Source of the DNA: an uncultured Gemmatimonadales bacterium
GTDB taxonomy: Bacteria > Gemmatimonadota > Gemmatimonadetes > Gemmatimonadales > GWC2-71-9
Length of the DNA: 64,000 nt
Direction of reading: 5' to 3'
NCBI GenBank assembly: GCA_963715665.1
Contig: OY970263.1
Coordinates: forward strand, 253,514 to 317,513
Shown here: positions 14,583-50,184 of the stretch, piece after piece
Layout of the letters: every line of letters begins with the position of its first letter
How positions within the stretch are numbered: the first letter of the stretch is position 1
Position numbers and translations under genes: made by a program
The notes under the pieces: model-generated
Told to the model about the DNA's origin: nothing
The model's database searches: none
Seen by the model: only the letters and a program-made list of their open reading frames with translations

Positions 14583-14585
14583 GCT

Positions 14586-30946: not shown

Positions 30947-30957
30947 ATGGTGGTGTG

Positions 30958-33310: not shown

Positions 33311-33631
33311 ATGGACAAACGAACCCGATATTCGCCTGAAGTCCGGGAGCGCGCCACCCGCCTGGTCCTGGAGCAGCAAGCGGCCCACGGCTCGCAGTGG
33401 CAGGCCATTCGCTCCGTGGCCGACCAGATTGGCTGCACGCCGGAGTCGCTACGCCGCTGGGTGCGGCAAGCGGAAACCGACACCGGCCGCCGGGCCGGCC
33501 TGACGACGAGTGAGCAGCAGCGCGTGAAGGAACTGGTGCGGGAGAATCGCGGGCTGCGGCGCGCGAATGCAATCCTGCGCAAGGCGTCGGCGTATTTTGC
33601 GCAGGCGGAGCTCGACCGCCGCGGGACGTGA
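33311..33631 (+). CDS. IS3-family transposase OrfA (HTH)
   Basis: RYSPEVRERATRLVLE...LRRWVRQAE...leucine-zipper-like...KASAYFAQAE is typical of IS3 OrfA. Confidence 0.8.
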   Translation: MDKRTRYSPEVRERATRLVLEQQAAHGSQWQAIRSVADQIGCTPESLRRWVRQAETDTGRRAGLTTSEQQRVKELVRENRGLRRANAILRKASAYFAQAELDRRGT

Positions 33632-34536: not shown

Positions 34537-34568
34537 CCGAGTCTCCGAGAAAGCCGGGGCGATTCATC

Positions 34569-35699
34569 ATGACTCTTCGGCGCCTGTTGGGAGTCGTGCT
34601 TTTCACCTGTGTGCGGGTATGGTCGCATCCTGGTCCTGTGTTTGGTCAGCAGGTATGGCGGCTGACGGAGGACCTGCGGATTGGTGGCGCTGATGCAGGC
34701 CCTGCCTCGTTCGCCGAGGTGGGCGATGTCGCGGTTGACGGGGCATCGGATATCTTTGTTCTGGACTATAAGGCTAGCGAGATTCGCGAATTCGATTCGG
34801 TCGGCCGCTTTGTACGCACGATTGGTCGCGTTGGTGCTGGCCCCGGCGAATACGGTCAGCGAGTCCATGGCATTCGTACCGCTCCCGACGGGCGGCTGTG
34901 GGTCAACGATGCGGAACACGGCCGTTTGGTGGTATTCGACTCGAACGGTTCGTTTTATCGACAGGTGTTGAGGCGCTACAACGGATTCAGTGCTGTATGG
35001 CATGCTCGATTTGACACGCTCGGTCGCCTCATGGAGGTTATCCCGTCGGTTGATTCCGCGGGATCTGCGGTACTGGCTGCCCTTCGATTGGACCCGAAGA
35101 CGTTAGCGTGGAGTGTACATGCGCTGCCGTGGTTCTCTGACTTCCAAGTGAGCTCGGATCGAAATCGCTGGCATTATCGCAATACTTCTGGGGGCGGTAC
35201 GATTGCAATACCGTTTGCACCTCAATCGTTGAGCGTCTTTGACCCGGCGGGGACTTGGTGGTGCAGCGCCGCGACATCATATCAGGTTCGGCTCGTTGAC
35301 ATAGACAATGGTGATGTCATCGCGAGCATTCGAAAGAAAGCTGCACGGTATGACATTGGACGGTCCGTGCGCGATTCCGCAATGACGGCGGTTGCGGCTA
35401 TCATGTCGTCGGTTCCCCGTGGTACGGTTGACTTGGATGCGATCCCGAAGACGTACCCGCCGGTCGGTGGGCTCGCCGTCGATGATAAACACGAGTTGTG
35501 GGTCACGTACGAAACGGAACGTGGTCCGAAGATCGATGTGTGGTCCCCGGACGGCACACGCATCGCGATGCTCAATGCACCGCCGGGGACTCTCGCCAAA
35601 TGGATCTTGGTGATTTCCCAAGGACGATACTACACGGTAGCGCTCGACCATGACGATGTGCCCTTCGTCGTTCGGTACCGGATTGACAGAGAGCACTGA
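34569..35699 (+). CDS. six-bladed beta-propeller family protein (GxGPGEF type), paralogue 1
   Basis: Signal peptide, repeated ...V.D..G.... strands and GRVGAGPGEY. Paralogous to 41161, 48946, 50883 and 52363. Its ATG is formed at the IS junction. Confidence 0.7.
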   Translation: MTLRRLLGVVLFTCVRVWSHPGPVFGQQVWRLTEDLRIGGADAGPASFAEVGDVAVDGASDIFVLDYKASEIREFDSVGRFVRTIGRVGAGPGEYGQRVHGIRTAPDGRLWVNDAEHGRLVVFDSNGSFYRQVLRRYNGFSAVWHARFDTLGRLMEVIPSVDSAGSAVLAALRLDPKTLAWSVHALPWFSDFQVSSDRNRWHYRNTSGGGTIAIPFAPQSLSVFDPAGTWWCSAATSYQVRLVDIDNGDVIASIRKKAARYDIGRSVRDSAMTAVAAIMSSVPRGTVDLDAIPKTYPPVGGLAVDDKHELWVTYETERGPKIDVWSPDGTRIAMLNAPPGTLAKWILVISQGRYYTVALDHDDVPFVVRYRIDREH

Positions 35700-35916
35700 T
35701 CATCGGGCGCTCTGCTGACACTGACGTCTCCCGTCAAGACCTGGCCGTCCAATGTGGAGGGGGTTCGTCCGGACGATTGAACAGATGCTGACGTTCCCCG
35801 CGACAGGTAGGGCAGTTCAGGAGGACAGCGGTTTGACGTGGGAAAGCGCATTGTGGCGCGGAACGATGCCAAGCTCGTCGATCGGAGCGCCGCTTTCGAT
35901 TGTCGGGTCGACCCTT

Positions 35917-36153
35917 CGCTCACCGGCCGCGCACAGGGTGCTAGTTCAGACGCCGATGACCGCAAAGTGACTGCCACGTCGGCGGTCTGACCGAGACTAG
36001 CCGCAGCGTCCGCCGGACCGCTTGCCCGACTCGCGCCGTGTCCCTTTATGTGTCTGCCTCGGCTCGCGCGCCGCTTGCACGGTCCAGTTCCGCCGAGGCA
36101 AGCCAGATCATCCAGGGACCAACCTTGGGCTTATCCGTGTCCGGGATAGGGCG
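35917..36153. repeat. conserved non-coding module downstream of the XRE gene (copy 1)
   Basis: Near-identical to 44247-44481. Contains a hairpin, GCCTCGGC...GCCGAGGC (36056-36099), and a longer imperfect palindrome, GCTAGTTCAGAC...GTCTGACCGAGACTAGC. Confidence 0.7.
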
Positions 36154-36402
36154 TCACCGGGCCACCGAGGGGACAGGCGGCGGTTCGCACCCCAGGAAGG
36201 CGGCGATTGCCGGGCGGGTCGCTGGCACCGGGTCCGTCTTGCCCAACTCCCAGTTCGTCACCGTGGCCGTGTCCACGCCGATCTGGGCCGCCACCTCTCG
36301 TTGCAATAGCTCAAGATCAATCCGCCGAGCCCTGATCTCGTCCCCTAAGTGTTTGATCTGCTTGGGGTAACCCGGCTTCGGGGTGGGTGCCGTCAGCCGC
36401 AA
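36154..36402 (-). CDS. XRE-family HTH protein, island-end copy 1
   Basis: 82 aa (LGDEIRARRIDLELLQREVAAQIGVDTATVTNWELG). The TTG start lies ~16 nt from the comM-fragment junction. Three paralogous copies are present. Confidence 0.7.
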   Translation of the reverse strand: MRLTAPTPKPGYPKQIKHLGDEIRARRIDLELLQREVAAQIGVDTATVTNWELGKTDPVPATRPAIAAFLGCEPPPVPSVAR

Positions 36403-36418
36403 CGGCAGTTTGGCAACA

Positions 36419-36904
36419 AATCCCTGTCCCTGCGGCTACCTGGGTGACGCGACGCGGCAGTGCAGCTGTTCGCCGATGGCGGTGCAGCGGTACCGCGCGA
36501 AGATCTCCGGGCCGCTGCTCGACCGGGTGGATATCCACCTGAGTGTCCCGCCGGTGGCCTACGACGATCTCACCGCGCGCAAGGCAGCGGAATCGAGTAC
36601 CGTGGTGCGGCAGCGGGTGGAAGCGGCGCGGGCGCGGCAGCTGGAGCGGTTCCGGGAAGTGCGCGGGGTGTATGCCAATGCGCACATGGGTCCCAGGGAG
36701 CTGGCCAGGTTCGTGCGGACCGATGCCGCGACCGATGCGGTGCTCAAGCAGGCGATCGTCAAGCTGGGGCTGTCGGCGCGGGCGTATCACCGCGTGCTCA
36801 AACTGGCGCGGACACTGGCGGATCTGGAGGGGGTGGCCGAGGTGGGGCCGCAGCATGTGGGGGAGGCGATCCAGTACCGGGTGCTGGATCGGGGGGAGGG
36901 GTGA
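36419..36904 (+). pseudogene. comM: comM 3' fragment (copy 1)
   Basis: Matches comM 30332-30817 from NPCPCGYLGDATRQCSC to the stop, with only a few amino-acid substitutions. It lacks the 5' two thirds. Confidence 0.9.
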
Positions 36905-36952
36905 GGGCCGGGGGCGACATAGAGGCCACCGATCAACGCTTGACTGTCGGGC

Positions 36953-37657
36953 GTGGGACGGTATCCGGCCCGATGCCCTTGGCTCCTGACAGTCGCTGTC
37001 GTGGCGGACCACGATTCATCGGGGAGCGCACGATTGTTTGGCCTCGGGGGCTGCGGTGTGCGCTATCTGGTAGACGTTGGGCAGGAGGGCGGGTGGGCTA
37101 GGTTGCGGCGGTTGGTCGCAGAATCCGGAGGTCGCACGACCACGGCCATCCTGGCCAAGGTCCTGCCGGCGTTGGGAGACACCACTGACGGTACGCGCCA
37201 TTTCTTCGACACGATGGTACGTTCTGCGCCCCGCATTTGGACCGCAACGTTGTTAGCCGGCGTCCTCAGGGTCCGAAGCAGCACCCTCAACTCGCGGTTT
37301 GCCCGTGCCGGACTGCCGACGCCGAAGACGTACCTGGCAATGATCCGGCTTGCGTACGCAGCAGCCCTCTTTGATGAGACCGAAGCGACAATCGCGGAGG
37401 TGGCCTATCGTCTCGGCTTCGCCTCGCCACAGTCCTTCGGGCGCCATCTCCGAATCGGTCTTGGAGTGACTGGGAGTGAGTTTCGGTGCCGGTTCCCATT
37501 CAACGTCATGCTTGATCGGTTCCTTGCGGCGTTGGTGCTGCCGAATGGGCCGGTCTGGACGGGCTTCGATCCATTGGCCGCGAGACGATTGGGGCGTGGC
37601 GCATCATCTGCGGCAGAAGTTCGAGGGAGTCGAGCCGGATTCGCTATCGATCGATGA
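36953..37657 (+). CDS. AraC-type HTH regulator
   Basis: The C-terminus (TIAEVAYRLGFASPQSFGRHLRIGLGVTGSEFR) is an AraC-family HTH. The N-terminal extent is uncertain. Confidence 0.6.
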   Translation: MGRYPARCPWLLTVAVVADHDSSGSARLFGLGGCGVRYLVDVGQEGGWARLRRLVAESGGRTTTAILAKVLPALGDTTDGTRHFFDTMVRSAPRIWTATLLAGVLRVRSSTLNSRFARAGLPTPKTYLAMIRLAYAAALFDETEATIAEVAYRLGFASPQSFGRHLRIGLGVTGSEFRCRFPFNVMLDRFLAALVLPNGPVWTGFDPLAARRLGRGASSAAEVRGSRAGFAIDR

Positions 37658-37668
37658 GTGAGGTCGTG

Positions 37669-37696
37669 AAAGCCAGCGACATTGGTCGCTGGCTTT
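37669..37696 (+). terminator. stem-loop downstream of the AraC-like gene
   Basis: AAAGCCAGCGAC-ATTG-GTCGCTGGCTTT is a perfect 12-bp stem followed by GTGG (weak U tract). Confidence 0.5.
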
Positions 37697-37752
37697 GTGG
37701 TGCAGTGCTCTCTCCGGGGGCGCTAGGCGGTCAAGGATATTGTGGAACGTTC

Positions 37753-37780
37753 TTGACTAGAACGATTACCGCATTATAAC
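37753..37780 (+). promoter_or_regulatory. sigma-70-like promoter candidate
   Basis: TTGACT, a 16-nt spacer, then TATAAC, in an AT-richer gap ~90 nt upstream of the XRE gene at 37872. Confidence 0.4.
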
Positions 37781-37871
37781 TTCACCTTGGAATCTGTGGT
37801 CGTGTATGCGAACGTTGACCGGCCGGGATCATGACCGGTGTCGAGAGTCCTTTGATCGTTGACGGGACCTT

Positions 37872-38330
37872 ATGCCAAGCACGAATAGGAGCGAGATAGG
37901 GTCGAGGCTGCAGCGCATTCTCCGAGATCAGGCCATGGGCCAGATCGATTTGGCCCGGCTGGTCGGCACGACGCAATCGACCATCAGCCGTGTCGTCTCG
38001 GGGAAGATGGGTCTGTCTGTTGACTTGGCAATACGAATTGCCGATGTCGCCGGAGTTCGAGTTGGCTGGTTGCTTAGTGGCGAACCGCCCGTTAGACCGG
38101 ACGAAGCGTTGGAAGTCGCGCTCACGAATTCATATGAAACGGGCTGGCTCGATGCCACAAGTGTTTTGGAAGGCGCCTTCAAAGCTTTGAGAGGATTGAA
38201 GGGTCGATCCGGTTCGCCTGAAATCACTGACTTCGTGGCGCAACTCGAGGTGCAACGACCTGAATTCATCAATCTGATCCGACGTCGTCTCACGAAAAGC
38301 TCCTCCCAGCGGCGCCGGAATTCAGCCTGA
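37872..38330 (+). CDS. XRE-family transcriptional regulator with C-terminal extension
   Basis: HTH (IDLARLVGTTQSTISRVVSGK), then RVGWLLSGEPP and a helical tail. Same architecture as 60426..60914. Confidence 0.7.
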   Translation: MPSTNRSEIGSRLQRILRDQAMGQIDLARLVGTTQSTISRVVSGKMGLSVDLAIRIADVAGVRVGWLLSGEPPVRPDEALEVALTNSYETGWLDATSVLEGAFKALRGLKGRSGSPEITDFVAQLEVQRPEFINLIRRRLTKSSSQRRRNSA

Positions 38331-38363
38331 GAAGAATTGGTGGATGCCCCTAGTGGGCCAGCA

Positions 38364-38693
38364 TCAGGCCCTCACGGGTCGCTGGCCCGGGTCGTTTGGG
38401 ATTGGCCGCTGAATTGAATCGCACGTGGAGTCCGGAGCGACGGCTCGTACATGCTTCTGGCGACGGTCTAGGCGTAAGCGCCTCGCTTCCATAGGGCGAA
38501 ACCCCGTTGGCGATTCATAACTGATCGGAACTGCAGCCCCTTTCGACACCGCAAGCCATAGTTGTCGGGAACTGTCCACTTGCCGTGCGATCACGATAGG
38601 AAACCGGTGACTTAGGTCACGCAGGATGATATCGCCGCAGCGAATACCGAGTGGCGGATAATCGGCGACTGCCAAATAGTACGTAGGTGGCAT
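38364..38693 (-). CDS. hypothetical protein (weak call)
   Basis: Only an ORF with no recognisable motif. Its start overlaps the reconstructed 5' end of the IS-split peptide gene on the other strand. Confidence 0.2.
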   Translation of the reverse strand: MPPTYYLAVADYPPLGIRCGDIILRDLSHRFPIVIARQVDSSRQLWLAVSKGAAVPISYESPTGFRPMEARRLRLDRRQKHVRAVAPDSTCDSIQRPIPNDPGQRPVRA

Positions 38694-38778
38694 TGAACCA
38701 TCCTAGAGGATCGGTGTGAGCTGACCCCGGTTTGGAGGACACACCATTTAGGTGTTTTCCTTCATCTGGGAGGTCAGG

Positions 38779-39072
38779 ATGCGGACCAGGCGGCAGTTCA
38801 GTCGGGAGTATAAGCTCGAGGCAGTACGGTTGGTGCTGGAGCGCGGGGTGAGTATCGCCCAGGCGGCTCGCGATCTGGATATCCACGTGAATTCCCTGCG
38901 CAAATGGATTGACGACTTCAAGCAGGATCCGGCGCACGCGTTCCCCGGCGAGGGGCGCCAGAAGCCCGACGATGCGGAAGTGACCCGGCTGCGGCGCGAG
39001 GTGGCGCAGTTGCGGATGGAGCGTGACATCCTAAAAAAAGCCGCGGCGTACTTCGCCAAGGAAGCGACGTGA
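38779..39072 (+). CDS. IS3-family transposase OrfA
   Basis: RRQFSREYKLEAVRLVLERGVSIAQAARDLDIHVNSLRKW...ILKKAAAYFAKE. Confidence 0.85.
   Translation: MRTRRQFSREYKLEAVRLVLERGVSIAQAARDLDIHVNSLRKWIDDFKQDPAHAFPGEGRQKPDDAEVTRLRREVAQLRMERDILKKAAAYFAKEAT
39033..39040 (+). promoter_or_regulatory. programmed -1 ribosomal frameshift site (A AAA AAA G)
   Basis: A7G lies in the orfA zero frame (CTA AAA AAA GCC). The -1 frame reads straight into orfB (…VKFRFVAKYR). Confidence 0.75.
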
Positions 39073-39935
39073 AGTTCCGCTTCGTGGCGAAGTACCGGAC
39101 CACGTGGCCAGTGCGAGCGATCTGCCAGGCCTTGGCGGTCTCGCCAAGCGGCTTTTACGCCTGGCTTCGGCGCGGGCCAAGTGCGCGCGCCCGCCGGCAT
39201 GCCGCGCTGATGCCAGCGATCCGCACCGCGTTTCTGCAGAGCGATCGCACCTACGGCGCCCACAAGATCCTCCGCGATGTGCGCGAGCTGGGGCACGCGT
39301 GCGGTCGGCATCAGGTCGCCCGGCTGATGCGGGCCCAGGCGCTGCGGGCCCGTCCGCGGCGCCGCGCGGTGCCGGTGGATCGCGGGGTGCGGCCGAGCAC
39401 GGCGCCGGCGGCGAATCTGCTCGCTCGGCAATTCGTCGCCACGGCGCCGAATCAGAAATGGGTCGCCGACTTCACGTACATCTGGGCGGGCGAGGGCTGG
39501 CTCTACGTCGCGGTCGTGCTGGATCTCTTCTCGCGCCGTGTGGTGGGTTGGGCGATGCAGCCGGCCATGACGACGCAGCTCGTCACCGACGCCCTGATGA
39601 TGGCGGTATGGCGGCGCGGACACCCGCAGGCGGTGCTGCATCACTCGGACCGGGGGAGTCAGTATACGAGCGACGACTTCCAGCGCCTGCTCCGCGATCT
39701 GGGGGTGACGTGCAGTCTGAGTCGGGCGGGCAATGTGTGGGACAATTCGGTGATGGAGAGTTTCTTCTCGATCCTGAAGACCGAGCGCACCGCGCGTCGC
39801 CAGTATCGCACGCGGGCCGACGCCCGGGCCGACATCTTCGACTACATCGAGCGCTTCTACAATCCGGTCCGTCGGCATTCGACGCTCGGCTATCTCAGTC
39901 CGGTGATGTATGAACGACAGGCAGAAGTAGCTTAG
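39069..39935 (+). CDS. IS3-family transposase OrfB (DDE)
   Basis: WVADFTYIW...LHHSDRGSQYTS...GNVWDNSVMESFF is a DDE integrase-like catalytic core with no internal stops. Confidence 0.9.
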   Translation: MKFRFVAKYRTTWPVRAICQALAVSPSGFYAWLRRGPSARARRHAALMPAIRTAFLQSDRTYGAHKILRDVRELGHACGRHQVARLMRAQALRARPRRRAVPVDRGVRPSTAPAANLLARQFVATAPNQKWVADFTYIWAGEGWLYVAVVLDLFSRRVVGWAMQPAMTTQLVTDALMMAVWRRGHPQAVLHHSDRGSQYTSDDFQRLLRDLGVTCSLSRAGNVWDNSVMESFFSILKTERTARRQYRTRADARADIFDYIERFYNPVRRHSTLGYLSPVMYERQAEVA

Positions 39936-40022
39936 GCAGGTGTCCACGAACTCGGGGTCAGCTCAGTTGCCCTATCGGCTGGCGTAGCACTGCTTGGTGC
40001 ACGCAACAAGCCAGCCTGGGCG

Positions 40023-40247
40023 TTGCCTGGCTGCGACCCCGGACCCAACGCCTACTGTGTCTATGGCGATTACACCTCGTGTGAAGATTCGGGCGGTGAT
40101 GCATCAGTGTACTGTACACAGCTACAGCAGTACACGGAGTGCGCCGGGCAAGGTTCCTTCGACTACGGTGAAGAGTGCGACGATAACAGTGCGGCGTGCA
40201 ATGGCAACGGTACCCTTGCCATTTGCGACTGGGATCCTTGGTCCTGA
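40023..40247 (+). CDS. acidic Cys-rich small protein, family member 2 (5' end split by the IS)
   Basis: 8 Cys in 74 aa. The frame is open upstream to the IS end (39966) and encodes VALSAGVALLGARNKPAWA, a signal-peptide remnant. No good start codon remains on this side of the IS. Confidence 0.55.
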   Translation: MPGCDPGPNAYCVYGDYTSCEDSGGDASVYCTQLQQYTECAGQGSFDYGEECDDNSAACNGNGTLAICDWDPWS

Positions 40248-40260
40248 ACTTCGATAGGGT

Positions 40261-40306
40261 CAGGAGTCGCGTCATGTCACGGTCAGTGTCGATGACGCGG
40301 CTCCTG
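40261..40306 (+). terminator. strong stem-loop after peptide gene 2
   Basis: CAGGAGTCGCGTCAT, a 16-nt loop, then ATGACGCGGCTCCTG (14 of 15 bp paired), 14 nt after the stop. Confidence 0.45.
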
Positions 40307-40387
40307 GCAGCTGCCCGAATGCACCCCTGAGCGCTCTGTCCCAGCGGATCTGGTAGCCGCCCCAGTTGATCTGGAGGTCCACGCCAC

Positions 40388-41065
40388 ATGAGAATTCAGA
40401 CGGCCATCGGTGAATGGGTGTCGAGGGGGTTCGTCCTGATTGCGGTCACATGCGCCGTCGTCTCGACGGTTGTGAGCCTCCGAGGGAGTGGATCGCACAG
40501 CATCAATCTTCGGGCTCCCAAGCCGAAGGTCGTCGCAGATTGGACCCAATATGAAACCGGGGGACACCGAATAGGCCCGCAAGCAGCCAAGCTGACGATT
40601 GTCGAGTTTGCTGATTTTGAGTGCCCTGTGTGCGGTCAATTTGAAAACCGAGTACTGCCGGGGTTGAGGCGAGAATTTCCGAACACAATATCGGTCGTAT
40701 TTCGCGAATGGCCGCTCGCCCAACACCACCTCGCGTATCCGGCCGCGCGCGCGGCTGAATGCGCGGGAGAGCAGGGTCGCTTCCAAGAGTATCACGATCT
40801 CCTGTACGCTAAGCAAGACTCCTTGGGCCTACTAAGCTTCGTGGACTTTGCCATCGAAGCCGGTATCCCCGATACGGCGCGATTTGCGGCTTGCAATGCA
40901 CGCCCCGGTGCTGTTAGTGCAATCGATGCCGATGTCGCCGCAGCAAGGCGTCTTGGCGGCCGCGGCACGCCGACGCTGATCGTAAACGGGCTGTTGCTTC
41001 TTGGACTGCCCGACAGCGCGGATCTTCATGATATAGTCGCGGCTCAACTGAAGAAGGCCGGCTGA
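40388..41065 (+). CDS. membrane-anchored DsbA-family thiol:disulfide oxidoreductase, paralogue 2
   Basis: GGAGG upstream, a TM helix and FADFECPVC. Collinear with 1086..1769. Confidence 0.8.
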   Translation: MRIQTAIGEWVSRGFVLIAVTCAVVSTVVSLRGSGSHSINLRAPKPKVVADWTQYETGGHRIGPQAAKLTIVEFADFECPVCGQFENRVLPGLRREFPNTISVVFREWPLAQHHLAYPAARAAECAGEQGRFQEYHDLLYAKQDSLGLLSFVDFAIEAGIPDTARFAACNARPGAVSAIDADVAAARRLGGRGTPTLIVNGLLLLGLPDSADLHDIVAAQLKKAG

Positions 41066-41160
41066 GCGAACACCTTTCAGAGGTCTTGCGTGTTGCGATT
41101 CGACGAAACCTCAGTATTCTTTGTCGCTGGAATTAGACGAAGTCTACCACTGAGGGACCG

Positions 41161-42336
41161 ATGATCGGTGTGCGGGCCACAGTTGCACTTATTGGACTGC
41201 CCTCTGTGGTGCCCATGCATGGTATTGCGCAGGTCGAGCGGCACTTTGCGCTTGTCCCCGTTCTCACCATCGATAGCCCCGTGGTTGACTCTGCCATCGC
41301 GGGAGGCGTCTTCCAATCCAATGGGCAAGTTGTCCTCTTTCAGCCGCAACGTGACCGCATCATCGTTTTTGACGCCTCAGGTCATCAACTGGCGGAAACG
41401 CCGGGTCGAGGCGAAGGGAAGGGTGAGTTCATACGACTCAGCGCGGGTGGTCCCGCACCCGACGGCTTCTGGGCTTATGATGCGCTTCGAACCAGAGTCA
41501 CGCTCTTTAGGCTCAATGGATCGGTGGTTCGAAGCGTTTCGGTGCCGACCTTTAAGGCCGCGCCTTCGGGGTCGGACGCATCATTCGACATCCCAAACGG
41601 ACCATTCACATACGTCTCGGCGATTCCGTGGACGGGCGAATACCTTGTGAGCAGCGTGGTTGGGCCCGAGGCCTCGGTCCCGCGGACGTGGCGGCGCCCA
41701 GCAGGTGCCGTTCAAATCCTGGTAAATGCGTCTTCCGGTGGGATGATTCGGAACGTGGTCGCCTGGACACCGTTCGTCCGGTGCGACACGACGGTGAACG
41801 TCGCAAATGATGAGCCGATCCACACACGGATGCCATTTTGTGTACAACCCATCAGGGCCGTTGGCCCCGAAGGTCACGTTACCGCAATAGTTCAGGCAAT
41901 AATGACCGGAAGGGATAGCGTGGATTTCGTCACTACCTCGCTTGCGCCTCGCGGTGATACGGTTTTTGTGAGTCACGTTAGGGCTCGTGCCGTGCCGGTC
42001 ACGCCCCAGGCAAGAGATAGTGAAGTGACGCTGATGGGTCGAGGCAAGACTGCGGCGGAGATCGCAGCGCTTCGCCAATTGTGTCCCGCGTCGTATTCTG
42101 GACTGAAGTCGGTGGTGGTCGGCGCAGATGGTTCCGTGTGGATCGAGCAAGTAGCGGCGCGAGGCCGGCGAACATGGATTGTGCTCGACTCGAGCGGCGT
42201 CGAATGGGGACGGTCGACGCTCGCGAGAGAAATTCGGCCCAAATTTGTGGGGCTTGCGACGATGTGGGGTATTGAGGAGCACCTCAATGGCGGGAGTGTG
42301 CCAGTGCACTGGGTGATTCACCGTTCCGGGCAGTAG
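41161..42336 (+). CDS. six-bladed beta-propeller family protein, paralogue 2
   Basis: Signal-like N-terminus, IIVFDASGHQLAETPGRGEGKGEF and repeated blade-like segments. Confidence 0.65.
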   Translation: MIGVRATVALIGLPSVVPMHGIAQVERHFALVPVLTIDSPVVDSAIAGGVFQSNGQVVLFQPQRDRIIVFDASGHQLAETPGRGEGKGEFIRLSAGGPAPDGFWAYDALRTRVTLFRLNGSVVRSVSVPTFKAAPSGSDASFDIPNGPFTYVSAIPWTGEYLVSSVVGPEASVPRTWRRPAGAVQILVNASSGGMIRNVVAWTPFVRCDTTVNVANDEPIHTRMPFCVQPIRAVGPEGHVTAIVQAIMTGRDSVDFVTTSLAPRGDTVFVSHVRARAVPVTPQARDSEVTLMGRGKTAAEIAALRQLCPASYSGLKSVVVGADGSVWIEQVAARGRRTWIVLDSSGVEWGRSTLAREIRPKFVGLATMWGIEEHLNGGSVPVHWVIHRSGQ

Positions 42337-42340
42337 TCGT

Positions 42341-44185
42341 ATGCCTATCGGAGCGGCGCTGCTGTATATGGCACTGGCGCTACAGGCTGCGCCGGCCCGC
42401 GGTGGGCAACCCAATAATCCGGTGATTGACCCCCGCGGCGGTTGGTTCCGGCAGGTCAGTTGGTCGGGGCCGAGTCGCCGCGCTGCACCATCGTGTGTCG
42501 GCGGCGGAATCAATCAGCCGGACATCGATGGGATGGGTACCGACTCGCTCCTGACGCTCCAGAACGACGGTGCGACCAGCGCGGAACGCAGCGGAGCGTG
42601 GCGGGAATGGTTGCTGGTCGGTTGCGTTCGCCTCCGACTGGCGTTTCCGCTGGGTGGCGCGGTCAGGAACGCGGAGATCCTCATGCCCCGCGGAACGTCG
42701 TGGCAGACCGGCGCACGGCGGGCCTTTCTCAAGGCTGCCTTCGCTGCCCCGAGGGAGGTCGAGGCGTGGCGATCCCTCGCGTTCGCAACACTGCTCAGCG
42801 TACCAGGGGACGTACCTGTCGTCCCGCGGATGCTGCCAGATTGGAGTTCTCAGATTGTTGATTATCCGCAGACCGGCGGCCGTGTGAATCTTGAGCCGGA
42901 GACGACCGCGATCTATGGTGCGGTACGGGCGGGTGTTGTCGATCCGCTCGTATTCCGGGCGTGTCTCGTGGGGATGATCTTCGAGGGGAATCTCGGCGGC
43001 GCTCGCGATTGCGGGACGCGCGCGTTGCTCGCGGGCCAGGATTCCACCTGGCAGCTCCTGCGCCTGGCGTGGCTGTCGTACCACGAGTCGGATTCCGTTG
43101 GCGGCGATGCGGAACTTGCCGCCGCGGTGGCGGCGGCGCACGATTCCGCGAGCCGGACGCAGATCGGATGGCTCTGGGAACGAGAGCATGATCCACATGC
43201 GGCGTATTCGCCGTTTGATATTGCATTGAGCGTGCGGCCGAATCTGGGAGCGGCAGGAACGGAACTCCTGCAGAAGCGCGAGTGGCTTGCCCTTCCGGAT
43301 TCCGAGCTGACCAGATGGGTAATTGGCCAACTTGGCACCAGTGAGGGAAAGGCAACATGGAGCGATCCGCGCGCCGTCGGTCTGCATTTCTTCATGTCGT
43401 TGACACTCGGAGATGGCGGCGACTTCCGGCCATGTATCCCTGACCGTGACACGGTGGCGGTCTGTGTGAGACGCGGCAAAGCCCTTCCCCGTGACCTTGT
43501 TGCCGCCCGTTGGCGGGGCTGGGATCCGACCACCGAGGCCCCGATTTCGCTGGTTCGCTTTGTCAGGCCGTCGCAAGGCCGCGGTGAATCTGATAGCATC
43601 GAGGTTCGCCAGTGGAATGGTCCTGGCGATTCCTTGCTGGATACGATTGTGGTCTCGTCATTCGCCGCCGGGCATGACGCGGCGAGCGGGAATGATCTGA
43701 TCGTGCGCCGTCTGCCGAACGAACGCCATTGGAGTGTCGTGTTGGCGCCAACGGCGTCAACTGACGCACCGATGACATTCCAGGAGAGCCAGGACGCGCT
43801 CGGTACGTCCGGCGCCATCGCGTTGTCGGATGTTGCGATCGGCCCGGCATCTGCTGTGGCACCGTCCAGCGCGGTTTGCGGTGAGACGTTCGTTGTAAGG
43901 CCGCGGATTGACCGGAACGCTGGCGCGACGGTGTGCTATCAGGTCCGCAGCAGACAAGTGCCGATCGCGATCGCAATTACTGAGACGGTGATGGCGACGA
44001 CGGGTGGGTCGCATCCGTCGGTCGCGATCAGGACGTCACGCACGCTTGGTGCGACGACAACGACCGTTGCAACAGCTGTCGATTTGCGACACTTGCGTCC
44101 GGGCTCATATCGGCTCGTCATCGAGATCGGCGAGGACCCGAAGTCTCCGGGAGCGCGGGCGATTACCAAGTTCGAATTGTACTGA
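42341..44185 (+). CDS. hypothetical secreted protein (614 aa), no recognised domain
   Basis: Starts 5 nt after the propeller stop and has a signal-like N-terminus. I recognised no family motif. Confidence 0.5.
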   Translation: MPIGAALLYMALALQAAPARGGQPNNPVIDPRGGWFRQVSWSGPSRRAAPSCVGGGINQPDIDGMGTDSLLTLQNDGATSAERSGAWREWLLVGCVRLRLAFPLGGAVRNAEILMPRGTSWQTGARRAFLKAAFAAPREVEAWRSLAFATLLSVPGDVPVVPRMLPDWSSQIVDYPQTGGRVNLEPETTAIYGAVRAGVVDPLVFRACLVGMIFEGNLGGARDCGTRALLAGQDSTWQLLRLAWLSYHESDSVGGDAELAAAVAAAHDSASRTQIGWLWEREHDPHAAYSPFDIALSVRPNLGAAGTELLQKREWLALPDSELTRWVIGQLGTSEGKATWSDPRAVGLHFFMSLTLGDGGDFRPCIPDRDTVAVCVRRGKALPRDLVAARWRGWDPTTEAPISLVRFVRPSQGRGESDSIEVRQWNGPGDSLLDTIVVSSFAAGHDAASGNDLIVRRLPNERHWSVVLAPTASTDAPMTFQESQDALGTSGAIALSDVAIGPASAVAPSSAVCGETFVVRPRIDRNAGATVCYQVRSRQVPIAIAITETVMATTGGSHPSVAIRTSRTLGATTTTVATAVDLRHLRPGSYRLVIEIGEDPKSPGARAITKFELY

Positions 44186-44246
44186 GCGATCGCCGCGGTG
44201 CGTGATCGCGTGGATCAAGCGTCGTGGGCAGTTCTGGTCAATGCCC

Positions 44247-44481
44247 CGCTCACTGGCCGCGCACAGGGTGCTAGTTCAGACGCCGATGACCGCAAAGTGA
44301 CTGCCACGTCGGCGGTCTGACCGAGACTAGCCGCAGCGTCCGCCGGACTGCTTGCCCGACTCGCGCCGTGTCCCTTTATCTGTCTGCCTCGGCTCGCGCG
44401 CCGCTTGCACGGTCCAGGTCCGCCGAGGCAAGCCAGATCATCCAGGGACCATCTCGGGCTCATCGAGCTCAGGATAGGGCG
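44247..44481. repeat. conserved non-coding module downstream of the XRE gene (copy 2)
   Basis: Near-identical to 35917-36153. Confidence 0.7.
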
Positions 44482-44730
44482 TCACCTGGCCACCTGGGGG
44501 GCAGGTGGCGGGTCGCAGCGCAGGAAGGCGAAGATCGCCTGGCGGGTTGCTGTCGCCGGGACCGTATTGCCCAACTCCCAGTTCCTTATGGTCGCCTTGT
44601 CCACGCCCATCTGGACCGCCACCTCTCGTTGCAGCAGCCCAAGGTCGATCCGCCGCGCTCTGATCTGGTCCCCTAAGTGCTTGATCTGCTTGGGGTAACC
44701 CGGCTTCGGGGTCGGTGCCGTCAGCCGCAA
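44482..44730 (-). CDS. XRE-family HTH protein, island-end copy 2
   Basis: 82 aa, a paralogue of 36154..36402 with scattered substitutions. Confidence 0.7.
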   Translation of the reverse strand: MRLTAPTPKPGYPKQIKHLGDQIRARRIDLGLLQREVAVQMGVDKATIRNWELGNTVPATATRQAIFAFLRCDPPPAPQVAR

Positions 44731-44746
44731 CGGTAGTTTGGCAACA

Positions 44747-44796
44747 AATCCCTGTCCCTGCGGCTACCTCGGCGACGCGACGCGGCAGTGCAGCTG
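44747..44796 (+). repeat. 50-nt comM core fragment (att-like)
   Basis: AATCCCTGTCCCTGCGGCTACCTCGGCGACGCGACGCGGCAGTGCAGCTG matches comM 30332-30381 with 2 mismatches, after which homology stops. Confidence 0.8.
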
Positions 44797-44947
44797 CGAT
44801 TGGCTGTCCCTGGTCGGCGAGACTATTCTTACCCAGGCGTACTAGCTCGCCAATGGCGTGGAACTGCAATTCCGGTAAGGATGGTCGTCCTGGGAGAGGC
44901 TGTTGAGTAGGCCACAGCGTGCTGGGCATACCAATAGAGTAGTTGGG

Positions 44948-46060
44948 ATGGTGACAGCTGCGTTTTCAACGGCAGCAGTTGGGCTTCTCGTTTGGGTGTC
45001 CGGTTGTAGCCATTCGGCGCCATTTGTCACCGGCAACTATTTGACCGACAGCGTTCGCGTCTCCGGCCCCTTCGCCCTCTTGACCGACGACAAGGGAACA
45101 TCGGACCCGGCATGGAACGCGGACGGTCAGGGGTTCCTGTATCATTTCCTGATCCGGCCGCCGCTCATCAACGATGTCAAGATCGCAATCCAATTCGGCA
45201 CCAGAGTCCAGCTCGTGCTGAAGGACAGCATGGATGTCTGTGTCGGGATGTTTCCCGCCACTGGCGGCAATCGGCACTGGACGCTGTGCGACACCCGCGA
45301 TCTGCAGTGGGATTCTGTCAACGTGTTCGGCACCACAGCGATCGCACCCAATGGCAGGTTGCTCTACCAAGAAGCGGTCGGGCGTACCGATTATCCGCTG
45401 CCGGTCGACTACCACGTCGACTTTTGGCTGGCGGACACGTCGCGTCCGTTCACGCGTCGGCGCTTGTTGGCGCTGTATACCGACTCGTCCGGCATTCCGA
45501 GGTCGCCCCCGACCACCGTCAACTGGGTAGAGCAGGCGCAGTGGCTCGGAGCAGACTCGTTTCTGGTGATCGGACGGCACATCCTTCCCGACAGTGCCTT
45601 GACGACTCTTGGACTGGGAGTCGGCAGGATCACGGACGCCGGCGCCGACCTGCAGCTGATTCCCGGAACTGCGGCGATACAGCGTTACGCCATCGCGCCG
45701 GGCGGGAGGGCGGCAATCTTCACCGACGGCACGTTGCAGGTCTGGCGAGCGGCATTCGATGGCGGGATGCCGGTCCCCTTCGTCACCATCCCCGCCATGG
45801 CCCACCGATCGATTCTCGATATCGCATGCACGGGCAATGGATGCCGGCTGCTCGTGCAGGAGACGGTGGATACCGTGGAGGGGCGCAATGCGCTGCAGGT
45901 CGCACGCTCCTGGATCTGGTCGGTGTCGGCGGACGGGAGTGCGTTGCAGCAGCTGATGGAGTTGCCCGGCGGGCCACGCCTGGATCAGGCGGCGCTCGCC
46001 CCGGTGGCGAACAGCGTGGTTGGTCGTGCCAACGGCGAGCTGTATCTCATCCGGCCGTAA
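44948..46060 (+). CDS. lipoprotein with TolB/PD40-like beta-propeller repeats
   Basis: Lipobox (LVWVSGC) and PD40-like repeats (APNGRLLYQE, IAPGGRAAIF, SADGSALQQL). A different family from the GxGPGEF propellers. Confidence 0.55.
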   Translation: MVTAAFSTAAVGLLVWVSGCSHSAPFVTGNYLTDSVRVSGPFALLTDDKGTSDPAWNADGQGFLYHFLIRPPLINDVKIAIQFGTRVQLVLKDSMDVCVGMFPATGGNRHWTLCDTRDLQWDSVNVFGTTAIAPNGRLLYQEAVGRTDYPLPVDYHVDFWLADTSRPFTRRRLLALYTDSSGIPRSPPTTVNWVEQAQWLGADSFLVIGRHILPDSALTTLGLGVGRITDAGADLQLIPGTAAIQRYAIAPGGRAAIFTDGTLQVWRAAFDGGMPVPFVTIPAMAHRSILDIACTGNGCRLLVQETVDTVEGRNALQVARSWIWSVSADGSALQQLMELPGGPRLDQAALAPVANSVVGRANGELYLIRP

Positions 46061-46069
46061 ACGCACAGG

Positions 46070-46627
46070 TCAGGTGCCGGACTCGGCCTCGGTTACCGGG
46101 CGTGTCCCGGAATGGGGCTTTCGCCAGTCTTGACGATCTGACGGGGCACGGAATGTCGACTGGATGTGTCGGCGCGTCCCGATCGTCCATCCGCCTGCAC
46201 CGAAGGCACCGGGACGCGAAGAGACCTTGGGCGGAAGGATCGATGAGCGGGCTGATCTTTGGCGCGACCACAGCTGTCTCGGGACGGTCCCTCGCGTCCG
46301 GTGCCTCTCCCACGGGTTGAGCGGTTGACCCTTCAGGGTCAAGGACCACCCTTGGATAGCCGGAGCCCGGCGTACGGCCTCACTGGGCGTCGCGGGGGCG
46401 GGGAACGGGTCGTACCCCAGGAACGCGACGATCGCGGGATAGGCGGCCGTCATCGGGGTCGTGTGGCCCAACTCCCAGTTCGTCACCGTGGCCGTGTCCA
46501 CGCCGATCTGGGCCGCCACCTCTCGTTGCAGTAGCTCAAGATCAATCCGCCGAGCCCTGATCTCGTCCCCTAAGTGTTTGATCTGCTTGGGGTAACCCGG
46601 CTTCGGGGTGGGTGCCGTCAGCCGCAA
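46070..46627 (-). CDS. XRE-family HTH protein, island-end copy 3 (C-terminally extended ORF)
   Basis: The first ~75 aa are near-identical to copy 1. The remaining ~100 aa are not conserved and may be read-through of a lost stop. Confidence 0.55.
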   Translation of the reverse strand: MRLTAPTPKPGYPKQIKHLGDEIRARRIDLELLQREVAAQIGVDTATVTNWELGHTTPMTAAYPAIVAFLGYDPFPAPATPSEAVRRAPAIQGWSLTLKGQPLNPWERHRTRGTVPRQLWSRQRSARSSILPPKVSSRPGAFGAGGWTIGTRRHIQSTFRAPSDRQDWRKPHSGTRPVTEAESGT

Positions 46628-46643
46628 CGGCAGTTTGGCAACA

Positions 46644-48122: not shown

Positions 48123-48279
48123 CTCGAGGTAGAACACGGGACATCTCGTGGCCCCGTGGGGCCATGATCTGCCGGTCGACCACAGGCCGGCGCAATAGGT
48201 CAAGGTTCCGGAGGAGCGGGCGTCGTCGGGTCAGAATGCCGTCGTCGGCTTCGTGGCGGAAACCCTATCAAGGAGGCAG

Positions 48280-48561
48280 ATGATGATTATCGTAAAGAGT
48301 GCTATCCGGTGTTTGGGAATGGCCGCGACGGTCGTTGCGCTCGCCGCCATTTCCGGTCAGTCGAGCCGACTGCGCGCCGAAACGGGCGCAACTTGCGATG
48401 CGTCGGACCCTTCGCATGCCTGCGTCAAGACGACCTTTGATCAAGGCGACCAGTGCTCTTCGCACTCGGGCTGCACAACATGTGAACCGCTCACCGGGTA
48501 CAATTGTGACCCCTATGGTAGCGGCGTATTCAAGGAAGATTGGAAGATGGACTGGGATTGA
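48280..48561 (+). CDS. secreted acidic Cys-rich small protein, family member 3
   Basis: AGGAGG at 48271-48276 before ATG 48280. 33-aa signal peptide (cleavage guessed after SRLRA) and a 60-aa mature part with 6 Cys. Confidence 0.65.
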   Translation: MMIIVKSAIRCLGMAATVVALAAISGQSSRLRAETGATCDASDPSHACVKTTFDQGDQCSSHSGCTTCEPLTGYNCDPYGSGVFKEDWKMDWD

Positions 48562-48587
48562 CCGATCAGGCGTTGAGTCACGCTACG

Positions 48588-48624
48588 GATACGCGGCCGA
48601 GCGATTGTGTACCGGCCGCGTATC
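48588..48624 (+). terminator. strong stem-loop after peptide gene 3
   Basis: GATACGCGGCCG, a 13-nt loop, then CGGCCGCGTATC (perfect 12 bp), 27 nt after the stop, with no U tract. Confidence 0.45.
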
Positions 48625-48945
48625 GGTGCGCCCGTCGCCGCAGCCGGGCCAATCGGCCTGCATTCGGATCACCACCGGCCGGAGTCCGCCGCATTGCGCG
48701 GCAATGGCGAAGCCCGCCAACGAGTTGCTGCGACCGAGTGCTGTACGACACCACCGGATCACTTTGGGTTCTGGAGTGCGTCACACAGCTGGCTCCTGCT
48801 CCGAGCAACATTCATTCGACAGTGCGGAGTCCGGCACTTTGTTCGCGCTGGGCGCAAGGTCCCTCGCCGGTAGCGGCAGCATGATGTGTGTTCTGGCGAC
48901 CGGATCCGACTTCGAGGGGTTCGGTAGCGATCTTCTCCTGGGCGA

Positions 48946-50124
48946 GTGGAAGAGGGATTGACCACGGTGGCGGATCAACGGGCGAGCACGTGCAGCGCGT
49001 GGGCAGAGGCAAGGGCTTGTTGTGACCCGTCGCCCGCATTGGCGTCGGCGAGCCGAAAGGCAACAGCCATTTCGGGTGTCATTCTTGTGCTTGGCCTGAT
49101 TGGTTGTGGGATGAGAGCCTCGGCCAGACTCCGGGACAGCTTGGATCCCACCGGTACTCGGCTGATACGGGATTCTGGTGAGGTCGATCTGGTCGGGGCG
49201 TTGGAGGTCACGGCGCCCATCATCGGAATGCCGCGTCACATGGCCACCAACGGCGCTTTCATGTGGCTGTACGATAGGGTCGGCGAACCCTATTTCCACC
49301 TTATCGATCTGTCTCACCATCGAATCGCGGTGTCATATGGCAGGTCTGGTGAGGGGCCAGGCGACTTCGCCTCAGTTGCCAGTCTGCAGGTCCGCCCCGG
49401 CGACACCTCGGGCGTGTGGGCGTACGATCCTCAGCTCCGGCGGCTGACACAACTTACGCCAAATCGAAACCGGGTTCGTGGCCGTACGATCACGGTCAGT
49501 GGCGGCCGGCGGCCGTACGATCTTCTGTGGCTCGATCGGGACCGGCTGTTGGGAATCAACGATTTGGACACGAACCGATTCCAGGTGTTCGACACATCCG
49601 GCAATCTGCTGAGGACGATGTCCGGGCCGCTGCTGGGATCTGATTCAATGCCATGGCAAGTACGTCGGGGTCTCTCAAGTGCGTTTGTTGCGTGTGTGGA
49701 TCCGGCAGGTGGGCGATTCGCCGTTCTATTTGTGGGGGCGGGGCGCATCGACATTCACGACACGTCGGGCGCGCTTGTCCGACACGCCGACGTGCCGTTT
49801 GTATCTGACGGTGAGTTCCATCGGGACCGGGACGGCCGCTACAGTTTCGGCACGCGATGGCGCTATTACGCCGATTGTGCTGCCACGACGCGATACCTAT
49901 ATGCCCTCTTTGCGGGCTATCGGACCGATGTTCCTGGTGCCTCTCGCGACGTCGCGGCGACACATGTCCAGGTGTTCGACTGGAACGGCGCCCTACGCGG
50001 GGAGTACCATCTTGACAGGCCAATGGGAAACATCGCAGTGGTGGGCGACACGCTGCTATACGCCGCCAGCATGATCACTCCGGGTGTCTATCGGTATCGG
50101 CTTCCAGTGCGCGATGGCCGTTGA
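48946..50124 (+). CDS. six-bladed beta-propeller family lipoprotein, paralogue 3
   Basis: Lipobox (LGLIGCG), GRSGEGPGDF and blade-like repeats (RFQVFDTSGNLL, RIDIHDTSGALV, HVQVFDWNGALR). Confidence 0.7.
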   Translation: MEEGLTTVADQRASTCSAWAEARACCDPSPALASASRKATAISGVILVLGLIGCGMRASARLRDSLDPTGTRLIRDSGEVDLVGALEVTAPIIGMPRHMATNGAFMWLYDRVGEPYFHLIDLSHHRIAVSYGRSGEGPGDFASVASLQVRPGDTSGVWAYDPQLRRLTQLTPNRNRVRGRTITVSGGRRPYDLLWLDRDRLLGINDLDTNRFQVFDTSGNLLRTMSGPLLGSDSMPWQVRRGLSSAFVACVDPAGGRFAVLFVGAGRIDIHDTSGALVRHADVPFVSDGEFHRDRDGRYSFGTRWRYYADCAATTRYLYALFAGYRTDVPGASRDVAATHVQVFDWNGALRGEYHLDRPMGNIAVVGDTLLYAASMITPGVYRYRLPVRDGR

Positions 50125-50184
50125 GCCCACAGGAGCGTATGGTTGCGGGGCTGTCGCATTACCCTCGTACGGAGTGAAAGAGCG

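Follow-up and report, generated by a model that had tools for sequence, protein, structure and literature searches.

Does a gene for a small cysteine-rich peptide stand beside a thiol:disulfide oxidoreductase and two large exported proteins by chance, or do these genes form a functional module? The question is raised by a locus of an uncultured Gemmatimonadales bacterium (assembly GCA_963715665.1, contig OY970263.1, positions 253,514 to 317,513). This whole stretch of 64,000 nucleotides, hereafter the window, was analysed, and three paralogous modules in it are called cassettes 1, 2 and 3; cassette 2 (39966–44185) is the subject of this report. A first-pass annotation had argued that the recurrence of the gene set in diverged form speaks for a functional module, and its recurrence across several Gemmatimonadota genomes supports that proposal. 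We give an even chance to the fuller reading, drawn from sequence comparison, that cassette 2 is one instance of a portable envelope module, specific to Gemmatimonadota, in which a dedicated DsbA would fold the peptide and exported partners would bind it.

Recurrence of the gene set

Two further copies of the gene set lie in the window. Cassette 1 (682–1772, minus strand) consists of DsbA1, with a CPVC motif, followed by a 100-residue peptide with eight cysteines (682–984), after which a downstream lipoprotein gene leaves the window. Cassette 3 (48253–53430, plus strand) contains a 102-residue peptide, a TolB-like propeller, DsbA3 (CSHC) and two more NHL propellers. When aligned pairwise, the paralogues prove to be diverged and not recent duplicates: the three cassettes have no cargo DNA in common, cassettes 2 and 3 being alike in DNA only at their borders, in the displaced comM ends and HTH_3 genes described below, DsbA2 of cassette 2 is 57% identical to DsbA1 and 29.6% to DsbA3, and the window propellers are mutually 17–26% identical.

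The association extends to other retrieved loci, which are designated by L-numbers. The annotation had made its proposal depend on synteny in relatives, and a DsbA with a transmembrane anchor adjoins a Cys-rich open reading frame (ORF) with a signal peptide (79–102 residues) at 14 of 15 close-family loci. The sole exception is the second DsbA of L091 (P0095), which has propellers but no adjoining peptide. For the 11 members of the 8-Cys peptide family described below, the gap between the DsbA and peptide genes is at most 126 nt. The pair is present in other assemblies at L084 (twice), L085, L088, L089, L090 (twice), L091, L097, L100 and L101, and the source genome itself has at least five DsbA paralogues, each beside a different Cys-rich signal-peptide ORF (cassettes 1–3, L082 and L083). 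The counterpart of cassette 1 is found in L090, beside ppk-dnaJ-grpE-esterase, where it goes on with a 633-residue GWxTD-like family protein; the order of cassette 3 (peptide, TolB-like propeller, DsbA; CSHC/CEYC) recurs in L090 at 11865–14762, an unrelated locus beside cinA.

An NHL propeller adjoins the DsbA gene at 9 of 13 Gemmatimonadota loci versus 1 of 67 loci from other phyla, among the matches listed (Fisher p = 3e-8); the latter, mostly generic DsbAs from a contig scan with the DsbA alignment, served as negative control. A member of the family of the 614-residue protein of cassette 2 (hereafter the 600-residue family) follows the DsbA-peptide pair at several loci, and a metagenome scan with a 9-sequence alignment of this family returned eight short loci, with the full trio in L097 alone. 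The large partners differ by locus (NHL, 600-residue, CarboxypepD_reg or none), and modules without a propeller are found at L082, L084 and L101. Signal-peptide or lipoprotein signals are present on all partner proteins. An automated filter for Cys-rich ORFs, applied to the same sets, gave 3 of 13 Gemmatimonadota loci versus 7 of 67 others (p 0.35, the other loci being among the matches listed); the filter is both too strict and too leaky, so that peptide adjacency was judged instead from called genes and by manual inspection. The peptide ORFs are called by public gene callers. It is the divergence of the cassettes, the recurrent DsbA-peptide pairing, the adjacency of NHL propellers and the 600-residue followers that support the module reading.

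In cassette 1, a 484-residue ORF (1086–2540, minus strand) comprises two genes, for a regulator-like protein of about 220–250 residues and then DsbA1. In L090 (7342–8852) the regulator-like gene and the DsbA gene are called apart, with a 4-nt overlap, and the regulator-like part has no family match.

The interrupted peptide gene

The 74-residue peptide with eight cysteines that had been reported at 40023–40247 is encoded there, and its frame is open back to position 39966, the exact end of an insertion sequence (IS). This 1249-bp element (38717–39965, plus strand) has two overlapping ORFs, orfA (38752–39072, HTH_Tnp_1), encoding a helix-turn-helix protein, and orfB (39069–39935, rve), encoding a DDE/rve protein, together with terminal inverted repeats, as found in the IS3 family. 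OrfB scores 346.8 bits on the NCBIfam IS3 family transposase model NF033516 (cut-off 160). The termini are 26-nt inverted repeats of the TG...CA type (TGAGCTGACC...GGTCAGCTCA), and the flanking triplets, GTG and GTT, are equal at two of three positions and may represent an imperfect target duplication. Removing the IS and 3 bp in silico rebuilds a 102-codon ORF, reading MALNHPRGSVALSAGVALLGARNKPAWA followed by LPGCDPG..., in which a Sec-type signal peptide precedes the 8-Cys domain; the earlier description of the gene as IS-split is thus correct. The signal peptide of the rebuilt precursor aligns with those of 10 homologues.

According to the excision ORF and the family alignment, the first 9–10 codons of the precursor, with the start and the n-region of the signal peptide, lie at 38687–38716 (plus strand) and are severed by the IS. 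The rest (39966–40247, plus strand) holds the remainder of the signal peptide (boundary AWA|LPGC) and the 74-residue mature-like peptide, which has 13 Asp and Glu and not a single Lys or Arg besides its eight cysteines. Severed from its signal sequence, the peptide is probably not functional in this copy; the other genes are intact. A module without the IS had been suggested as something to look for in related genomes; for cassette 2 itself, no such copy was found, the nearest DsbA of another genome being 56% identical. The short-read contig L001, from the same strain and identical in sequence, terminates within the IS, which would fit a multi-copy element.

Just after the peptide stop codon a stem-loop is located (40259–40308, plus strand). 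The hairpin annotated here stands, with a folding free energy of −40.8 kcal/mol and a z-score of −3.6, while its stem measures about 17 bp instead of 15; there is no U tract. Long stems are also found 3' of the peptide genes in W3, L088, L089 and L091.

The DsbA protein

DsbA2 (40388–41065, plus strand, 225 residues) is the membrane-anchored CPVC protein that the first-pass annotation had recognised. It has an N-terminal hydrophobic anchor, the motif C79-P-V-C82 and a cis-proline loop (G193-T194-P195), and matches the Pfam families Thioredoxin_4 (1.7e-22, 80.8 bits, cut-off 23.2) and DSBA (1e-12, 48.7 bits, cut-off 25.6). When 18 homologues are aligned, the CxxC motif, the G-T-P loop and a second cysteine pair are invariant. 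DsbA2 belongs to the DsbA-like thioredoxin-fold oxidoreductases, and oxidase activity is predicted. The clade contains 907 homologues, and all those named are from Gemmatimonadota. Membership of the Rcas_1661 family of thioredoxin-like (seleno)lipoproteins (NF041057) was rejected, as DsbA2 reaches 76.5 bits and DsbA3 61.2 bits where the cut-off is 190. No gene for a DsbB or VKOR protein was noticed in the module.

The exported propeller and the 614-residue protein

The gene after dsbA2 (41161–42336, plus strand) encodes an exported beta-propeller of 391 residues (propeller 2), and the GxGxGEF motif by which it had been singled out is present as GEGKGEF. The sequence alone has no Pfam match at E<0.01, and a word-index search with it gave, besides itself, one remote and weak homologue. 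A profile of the window propeller paralogues and P0123, compared with the PDB, matches six-bladed NHL propellers, namely the NHL domains of Thin, TRIM71 and TRIM2 (5.9e-22 to 1e-14). An AlphaFold2 (AF2) model made from seven sequences is nearly all-beta and of low confidence, with a predicted local distance difference test (pLDDT) value of 50.4; a Foldseek search with this poor model places NHL domains (Brat/TRIM) first, at TM-scores of just 0.3–0.45, and therefore supports no closer description than NHL-like. Propeller 2 has three cysteines, and no cysteine column is invariant across the propeller paralogues. Other propellers of the window match DUF5128 (34569–35699, 3.9e-10) and TolB_like (48946–50124, 4.2e-9).

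The last gene of the cassette (42341–44185, plus strand) encodes an exported protein of 614 residues, with a signal peptide, a helical and faintly tetratricopeptide-repeat (TPR)-like N-terminal half and a beta-rich C-terminal half. It follows the propeller directly, as had been noted, with a gap of 4 nt past the stop codon and not 5. The same annotation had called it an unrecognisable secreted orphan: its N-terminus is indeed signal-like and no Pfam or NCBIfam family is matched, but it is no orphan. A word-index search had returned only the protein itself, a result overturned by an exhaustive phmmer search of 1.84 billion representatives, which found 114 related clusters at E<=1e-3, of which 56 reach E<=1e-10, mostly of 550–750 residues. 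The public annotation of the gene (P0121) has 500 residues and starts at Met115, omitting 42341–42682 and with it the signal peptide and two conserved cysteines. Homologues align from residues 8–20, and Cys52 and Cys95, upstream of Met115, are nearly invariant, so that the long form is the real gene. Nearly invariant cysteines of the family are residues 52, 95, 208, 224 and 375, and weak PKD-like signals are seen in the region of the beta-rich C-terminal half.

The 614-residue protein is 27% identical to a 591-residue paralogue in the same genome (L082, E 2e-25), and the profile of its family aligns end to end with an 812-residue paralogue (L083; hhalign probability 99.8%), which itself passes the GWxTD model TIGR04514 with 32.9 bits (cut-off 28). 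The protein matches neither GWxTD model (TIGR04514, PF20094), PF20094 is matched by 1 of 28 family members (2e-4), and the GWxTD core is largely absent, mostly lost, in this branch. With no model match, yet end-to-end alignment with a GWxTD-positive paralogue, it is a relative and not a member of the GWxTD family. No literature on GWxTD proteins was found, and they are uncharacterised. Members of the 600-residue family and true GWxTD proteins also occur without DsbA or peptide (L092–L096, L098, L099; L087, 9010–16672), where they have as neighbours large proteins rich in beta structure and conserved proteins of 420–470 residues, a hint that the 600-residue family may have an older role of its own.

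Peptide family and rates of evolution

Eleven of the peptides can be aligned as one family, with an AxA cleavage site followed by x-P-x-C, an aromatic residue past the last cysteine and the framework C-x4-7-C-x7-11-C-x7-10-C-x3-9-C-x6-11-C-x4-6-C-x5-11-C. Seven of the eight 8-Cys peptides tabulated from Gemmatimonadales have a net charge of −10 to −16 with none or one Lys or Arg; that of L091 has a charge of −1. The peptides have no match in Pfam or in a PDB profile search, and a hidden Markov model of the family, run on the fetched loci, recovered only its training members. Longimicrobia have different, much shorter peptides with the same DsbA and NHL partners, in the order peptide, NHL propeller, DsbA: those of L007 (6220–6468) and L064 (1768–2241) have the pattern CC-x12-CC-x4-C-x6-C, resembling conotoxins, and that of L010 (6429–6614) has eight cysteines, two CC pairs among them, in a related pattern.

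Judged by ratios of nonsynonymous to synonymous substitutions (dN/dS) of 0.24–0.29 (method NG86), the peptide genes evolve as coding sequence. In the closest pair of modules, L082 and L084b, the peptide has a dN of 0.40 and the 600-residue protein one of 0.35, versus values of 0.10 in the DsbA and 0.08 in the regulator, so that the cargo diverges about four times faster, and peptide dN tracks that of the 600-residue protein in the three pairs available. From this contrast the peptide and the large protein look like a fast-evolving pair, and the DsbA and the regulator like conserved service functions. The near-identical regulators, among them those of the tandem units of L084 described below, differ by a dS of only 0.08–0.22, versus about 1 for the cargo; on these rates, the modules are mosaics of conserved arms and divergent cargo.

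Regulators and genomic setting

The two regulators that had been placed upstream of the cassette are both there. The AraC-type regulator (36953–37657, plus strand, 234 residues) matches Pfam HTH_18 (5.3e-13), its matches to NCBIfam AraC-family models being sub-threshold, and the XRE/HigA-like helix-turn-helix regulator (37872–38330, plus strand, 152 residues) matches HTH_3 (1.5e-8), with a match to a HigA antitoxin model (2.4e-7) below the cut-off. Convergent with the XRE gene is a gene for a hypothetical protein of 109 residues (38364–38693, minus strand), which has no family match and by eye is like a 92-residue product of L085. This pair of an XRE/HigA-like gene and a convergent gene for 92–109 residues (37872–38693 in the window) is kept in L085 (2837–3611), beside comM and inverted relative to it; from its arrangement it could be a toxin-antitoxin-like stabilisation pair. 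An XRE paralogue of 40% identity is located outside the island described next (60429–60920, minus strand).

Cassette 2 lies in an island (about 31.7–53.4 kb) with a G+C content of 0.59–0.64, compared with about 0.69 for the window. Ahead of it stands an intact comM gene (29285–30817), and copies of its 3' end, each made up of the last 486 nt and the 47 nt downstream (533 bp), are found at 36419 and 46644, 95–96% identical. The first of these (36419–36952, plus strand, 95% identical to 30332–30864) forms the left border of the segment that contains cassette 2. At 44747–44796 (plus strand) there is a 50-bp core of comM, the minimal stretch common to all junctions, with the sequence AATCCCTGYCCCTGCGGCTACCTGGGYGACGCGACGCGGCAGTGCAGCTG, encoding NPCPCGYLGDATRQCS; it is a candidate recombination site. 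When the junctions at 30332, 36419, 44747 and 46644 are aligned, they are identical to the nucleotide in every copy, and each internal junction is preceded by the same 82-residue HTH_3 gene on the minus strand (Pfam HTH_3 5e-8 for the paralogue at 36154–36402). Because of these comM copies with identical junctions and the HTH_3 borders, the region is described as four tandem segments: A (30332–36418), B (36419–44746, containing cassette 2), C (44747–46643) and D (from 46644, containing cassette 3).

The right-end block of segment B (44247–44746) consists of about 235 bp of non-coding DNA and the 82-residue HTH_3 gene (44482–44730, minus strand), abuts the next comM core and is 90.8% identical to 35917–36468. 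The stretch of about 235 bp (35917–36153 and 44247–44481), without a convincing ORF, is about 95% conserved; in plus-strand order it comes just before the HTH_3 gene found at the right ends of both segment A and segment B. It has no Rfam match and may belong to a recombination arm or encode a small RNA. Segment C has as its sole gene that of a 385-residue lipoprotein (44903–46060), which aligns weakly to the NHL paralogues and has neither GxGxGEF nor a family match. In segment A there is a second, unrelated IS3-family element (33300–34540), the orfB of which seems fragmented (33778–34236 and 34321–34536); its ALIL frameshift pseudoknot (33589–33705, 94 bits) is the sole match of the Rfam scan, and no tRNA genes were found.

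The related genome sampled by L085 has the same comM, with a junction likewise 486 nt ahead of the stop codon, and the same right flank of PrsW, YHS and outer membrane protein genes (window 53544–56085). Its comM junctions are at 2216 and 6283, and the cargo between the shared flanks differs and includes another DsbA-peptide-NHL trio. The interval between comM and PrsW is an insertion hotspot, with cargo that differs in a syntenic relative. At another site, L084 (1843–16197), three tandem units follow an intact PhzF gene, each with a PhzF 3' fragment of about 200 bp, an AraC-like regulator of 229 residues, a DsbA, an 8-Cys peptide of 94 or 95 residues and a protein of about 600 residues; in the third unit, a 256-residue acidic protein replaces the DsbA and the peptide. 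About ten copies of a 42-bp tandem repeat (L084, 2639–3059) lie right after the PhzF stop codon, before the first module.

From their structure, the segments may have moved by either of two equally good routes, namely site-specific integration by a recombinase acting in trans, with accretion of integrase-less elements, or homologous-recombination swapping of cargo between the conserved arms. Integron cassettes were rejected, with no attC or IntI present, as was a prophage, with no phage genes and no viral-contig matches; the comM junction motif and the HTH_3 protein are likewise absent from the viral contigs searched.

Proposed role and alternatives

In the module as we picture it, a Sec-exported precursor of about 100 residues would give a mature peptide of 60–75 residues, with eight cysteines, strongly acidic and essentially free of Lys and Arg. 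The adjoining membrane-anchored DsbA would put four disulfides into it at the periplasmic face. The NHL propellers, the roughly 600-residue TPR/beta-sandwich protein related to GWxTD, or both, would most likely bind it, in the role of a receptor, a carrier or an immunity protein. Expression would be under a local regulator of AraC-like, sigma-like or LuxR-like type, and the stem-loop past the peptide gene may set the ratio of peptide to downstream transcript. The kits would be horizontally exchanged cargo, placed in tandem segments of low GC that have duplicated 3' ends of a housekeeping gene (comM here) at their borders, with contents that vary between close relatives. Hypervariability and mobility point to interactions between bacteria, and, as a guess, we favour a part in antagonism or recognition among bacteria, or else in defence against it.

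Several observations weigh against this picture. No Phage_integrase or resolvase domain was found in any ORF tested between 27 and 64 kb of the window, so that mobility is deduced from structure only. No dN/dS above 1 was detected, and the dS of the cargo is saturated (about 1). The co-divergence of peptide and DsbA that had been suggested as a check is seen at the level of subtypes only; overall it is not significant (Mantel rho 0.21, p 0.07; rho 0.07, p 0.33 without recent duplicates), which makes the DsbA look generic and not matched to each peptide. Seven of the eight metagenome loci that were retrieved with the 600-residue family contain a member of it and neither DsbA nor peptide. With at least five conserved cysteines of its own, the 614-residue family could equally be the DsbA client. 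The AF2 model of the 614-residue protein alone is unusable (pLDDT 34), and like that of the propeller (pLDDT 50) it is too poor for binding tests. A classical bacteriocin role is weakened, since Sec export reaches the periplasm only and the module lacks an outer-membrane exporter, an ABC/C39 transporter and any recognisable immunity gene. A class II or glycocin-type bacteriocin cluster was rejected, given the Sec signal with its AxA site and the lack of an ABC/C39 or immunity family in the segment.

In the first of the alternatives, the peptides and propellers would be periplasmic inhibitors or immunity proteins directed at cationic toxins, lysozymes, proteases or effectors, the whole being an 'orphan immunity' island. 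All components are targeted to the envelope by Sec or lipoprotein signals, with no exporter; the peptides are extremely acidic and free of Lys and Arg; the cargo is hypervariable, horizontally exchanged and arrayed at a hotspot; and the short aromatic tail past the last cysteine is, we presume, reminiscent of small protease inhibitors. No known immunity or defence family is matched in PADLOC or Pfam, however, the PADLOC-DB defence models giving only generic helix-turn-helix matches, to the XRE and HTH_3 proteins. The neighbourhood has neither cognate toxin genes nor secretion systems, and a regulator for each module fits a producer locus equally well. We consider this defensive role unlikely.

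The cysteines of the large proteins raise a second alternative, that the DsbA serves the propellers, the 600-residue proteins or both, as DsbL/DsbI serve arylsulfate sulfotransferase in the precedent cited in PMC6067686, with the peptide accessory or independent. It is favoured by the five nearly invariant cysteines of the 614-residue family (52, 95, 208, 224, 375), by the propellers flanking the DsbA at 9 of 13 Gemmatimonadota loci and by the P0095 DsbA of L091 with its propellers and no adjoining peptide. Yet the most constant neighbour is the peptide (14 of 15), which also has the highest cysteine density, with eight in about 70 residues, and the large partners vary from NHL to 600-residue, CarboxypepD_reg or none. 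Propeller 2 has only three cysteines, none in an invariant column. We hold this alternative to be improbable.

A third alternative makes the propeller an enzyme, of a lyase or amidating-lyase type, that modifies or cleaves the oxidised peptide in a pathway like those of ribosomally synthesised and post-translationally modified peptides (RiPPs). Peptide-processing NHL propellers exist, such as the PAL domain, virginiamycin B lyase is among the fold matches of the poor propeller model, and a stem-loop follows the precursor gene as in many peptide operons. Against this, the invariant propeller positions are structural-looking Gly, Trp, Asp and Pro with no evident catalytic set, the propellers are among the fastest-diverging parts (17–26% identity), which is atypical for enzymes, and many modules have no propeller (L082, L084, L101); we think such an enzyme very unlikely. 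A RiPP cluster as such was rejected, as there is no maturase.

That a generic DsbA merely lies beside unrelated or spurious small ORFs in a junkyard island, as the IS-ridden, mosaic DNA and the indifferent result of the automated filter (3 of 13 versus 7 of 67, p 0.35, among the matches listed) would allow, is hardly credible, being largely refuted by recurrence at 14 of 15 loci in several genomes, with signal peptide and cysteine framework kept in 11 aligned members, dN/dS below 0.3 and ORFs called by public gene callers.

Taking the peptide-folding envelope module further, we tentatively suggest, and hold to be rather doubtful, an unrecognised class of mobile peptide cassettes. Each would be self-sufficient, with a regulator, its dedicated DsbA, an anionic peptide of four disulfides that is hypervariable, and an exported NHL or GWxTD-like partner that co-evolves, and would be inserted or swapped in tandem at the 3' ends of comM, PhzF and possibly peptidase M13 genes through the 50-bp core and conserved arms, without an integrase of its own. 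Such arrays would be an integron-like reservoir of envelope effector/receptor pairs, employed in antagonism or to discriminate kin.

Comparison with known systems

The sublancin 168 locus of the SPbeta prophage has the order sunA-sunT-bdbA-sunS-bdbB plus sunI, and BdbB forms the two disulfides of the peptide (PMC6391423). The module resembles it in combining a secreted disulfide peptide with its own thiol-disulfide oxidoreductase on acquired DNA, with the precursor first and the accessories downstream. In contrast to sublancin, which has a leader and an ABC/C39 transporter, the module uses a Sec signal; it has no glycosyltransferase or recognisable immunity gene, and its oxidase is of the DsbA type (Thioredoxin_4/DSBA) and not a DsbB-type membrane protein. 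Its peptide is anionic, with four disulfides, its host is a diderm of a different phylum and its partners are NHL and GWxTD-related proteins.

The client encoded by assT is a beta-propeller enzyme. Uropathogenic E. coli and Salmonella dedicate an extra DsbA paralogue to this periplasmic client, the genes being clustered as assT-dsbL-dsbI (Grimshaw et al. 2008, as cited in PMC6067686). The module likewise has a clustered extra DsbA, with several DsbA paralogues per genome. It differs in that no DsbB/DsbI partner was noticed in it, in that its NHL propellers lack an arylsulfotransferase signature (no Pfam match) and in that its constant neighbour, a small Cys-rich peptide, is absent from the assT cluster.

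The clusters of '6-bladed beta-propeller' (DUF5128, PF17170) and TolB-like lipoprotein (PF15869) paralogues in Bacteroidota are similar in their exported or lipoprotein propellers with many divergent paralogues, and window paralogues match these families. The module pairs its propellers with a DsbA and a Sec-exported 8-Cys peptide, an association that is not known from these clusters, and propeller 2 reaches neither Pfam model. A literature search on DUF5128, NVEALA, BF3164, GWxTD and Cys-rich peptides of Gemmatimonadota gave nothing relevant.

As to propagation, some integrative elements, such as e14 and phage 21 in icd, replace the 3' end of the target gene with one of their own, and tandem accretion without an integrase is exemplified by the cis-mobilizable elements (CIMEs) of Streptococcus thermophilus. 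The arrangement here is similar, with an intact comM followed by its own displaced 3' ends, identical junctions, a 50-bp core and head-to-tail segments. It differs from these elements in that no integrase or excisionase is recognisable in the ORFs tested between 27 and 64 kb of the window, the repeats are of 533 bp and the cargo consists of envelope-peptide modules.

Systems in which mobile DNA encodes a dedicated Dsb enzyme along with its cognate secreted client are thus already known; the module differs from them in export route, peptide chemistry, partners, phylum and propagation. Among its components only the DsbA and the NHL repeat fall in described families, and no description of the module was found in the literature or the family libraries searched. 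That the cassette-array behaviour amounts to something categorically new we regard as rather doubtful.

Implications

Gemmatimonadota are abundant in soil, and few species have been characterised (PMC11271474). The gene kit is widespread in this phylum and brings together, besides a dedicated DsbA clade, a new peptide family, secreted, extremely acidic and with eight cysteines, NHL propellers that evolve fast and the GWxTD-linked 600-residue family. Disulfide-knotted, protease-resistant peptides packaged with their own folding catalyst would be attractive for heterologous production. For the biology of these bacteria, the kit offers a handle on the purpose of multiple DsbA paralogues outside pathogens, on what the large expansions of NHL/DUF5128-type propellers do and on how hypervariable islands are built at comM with no recombinase in view.

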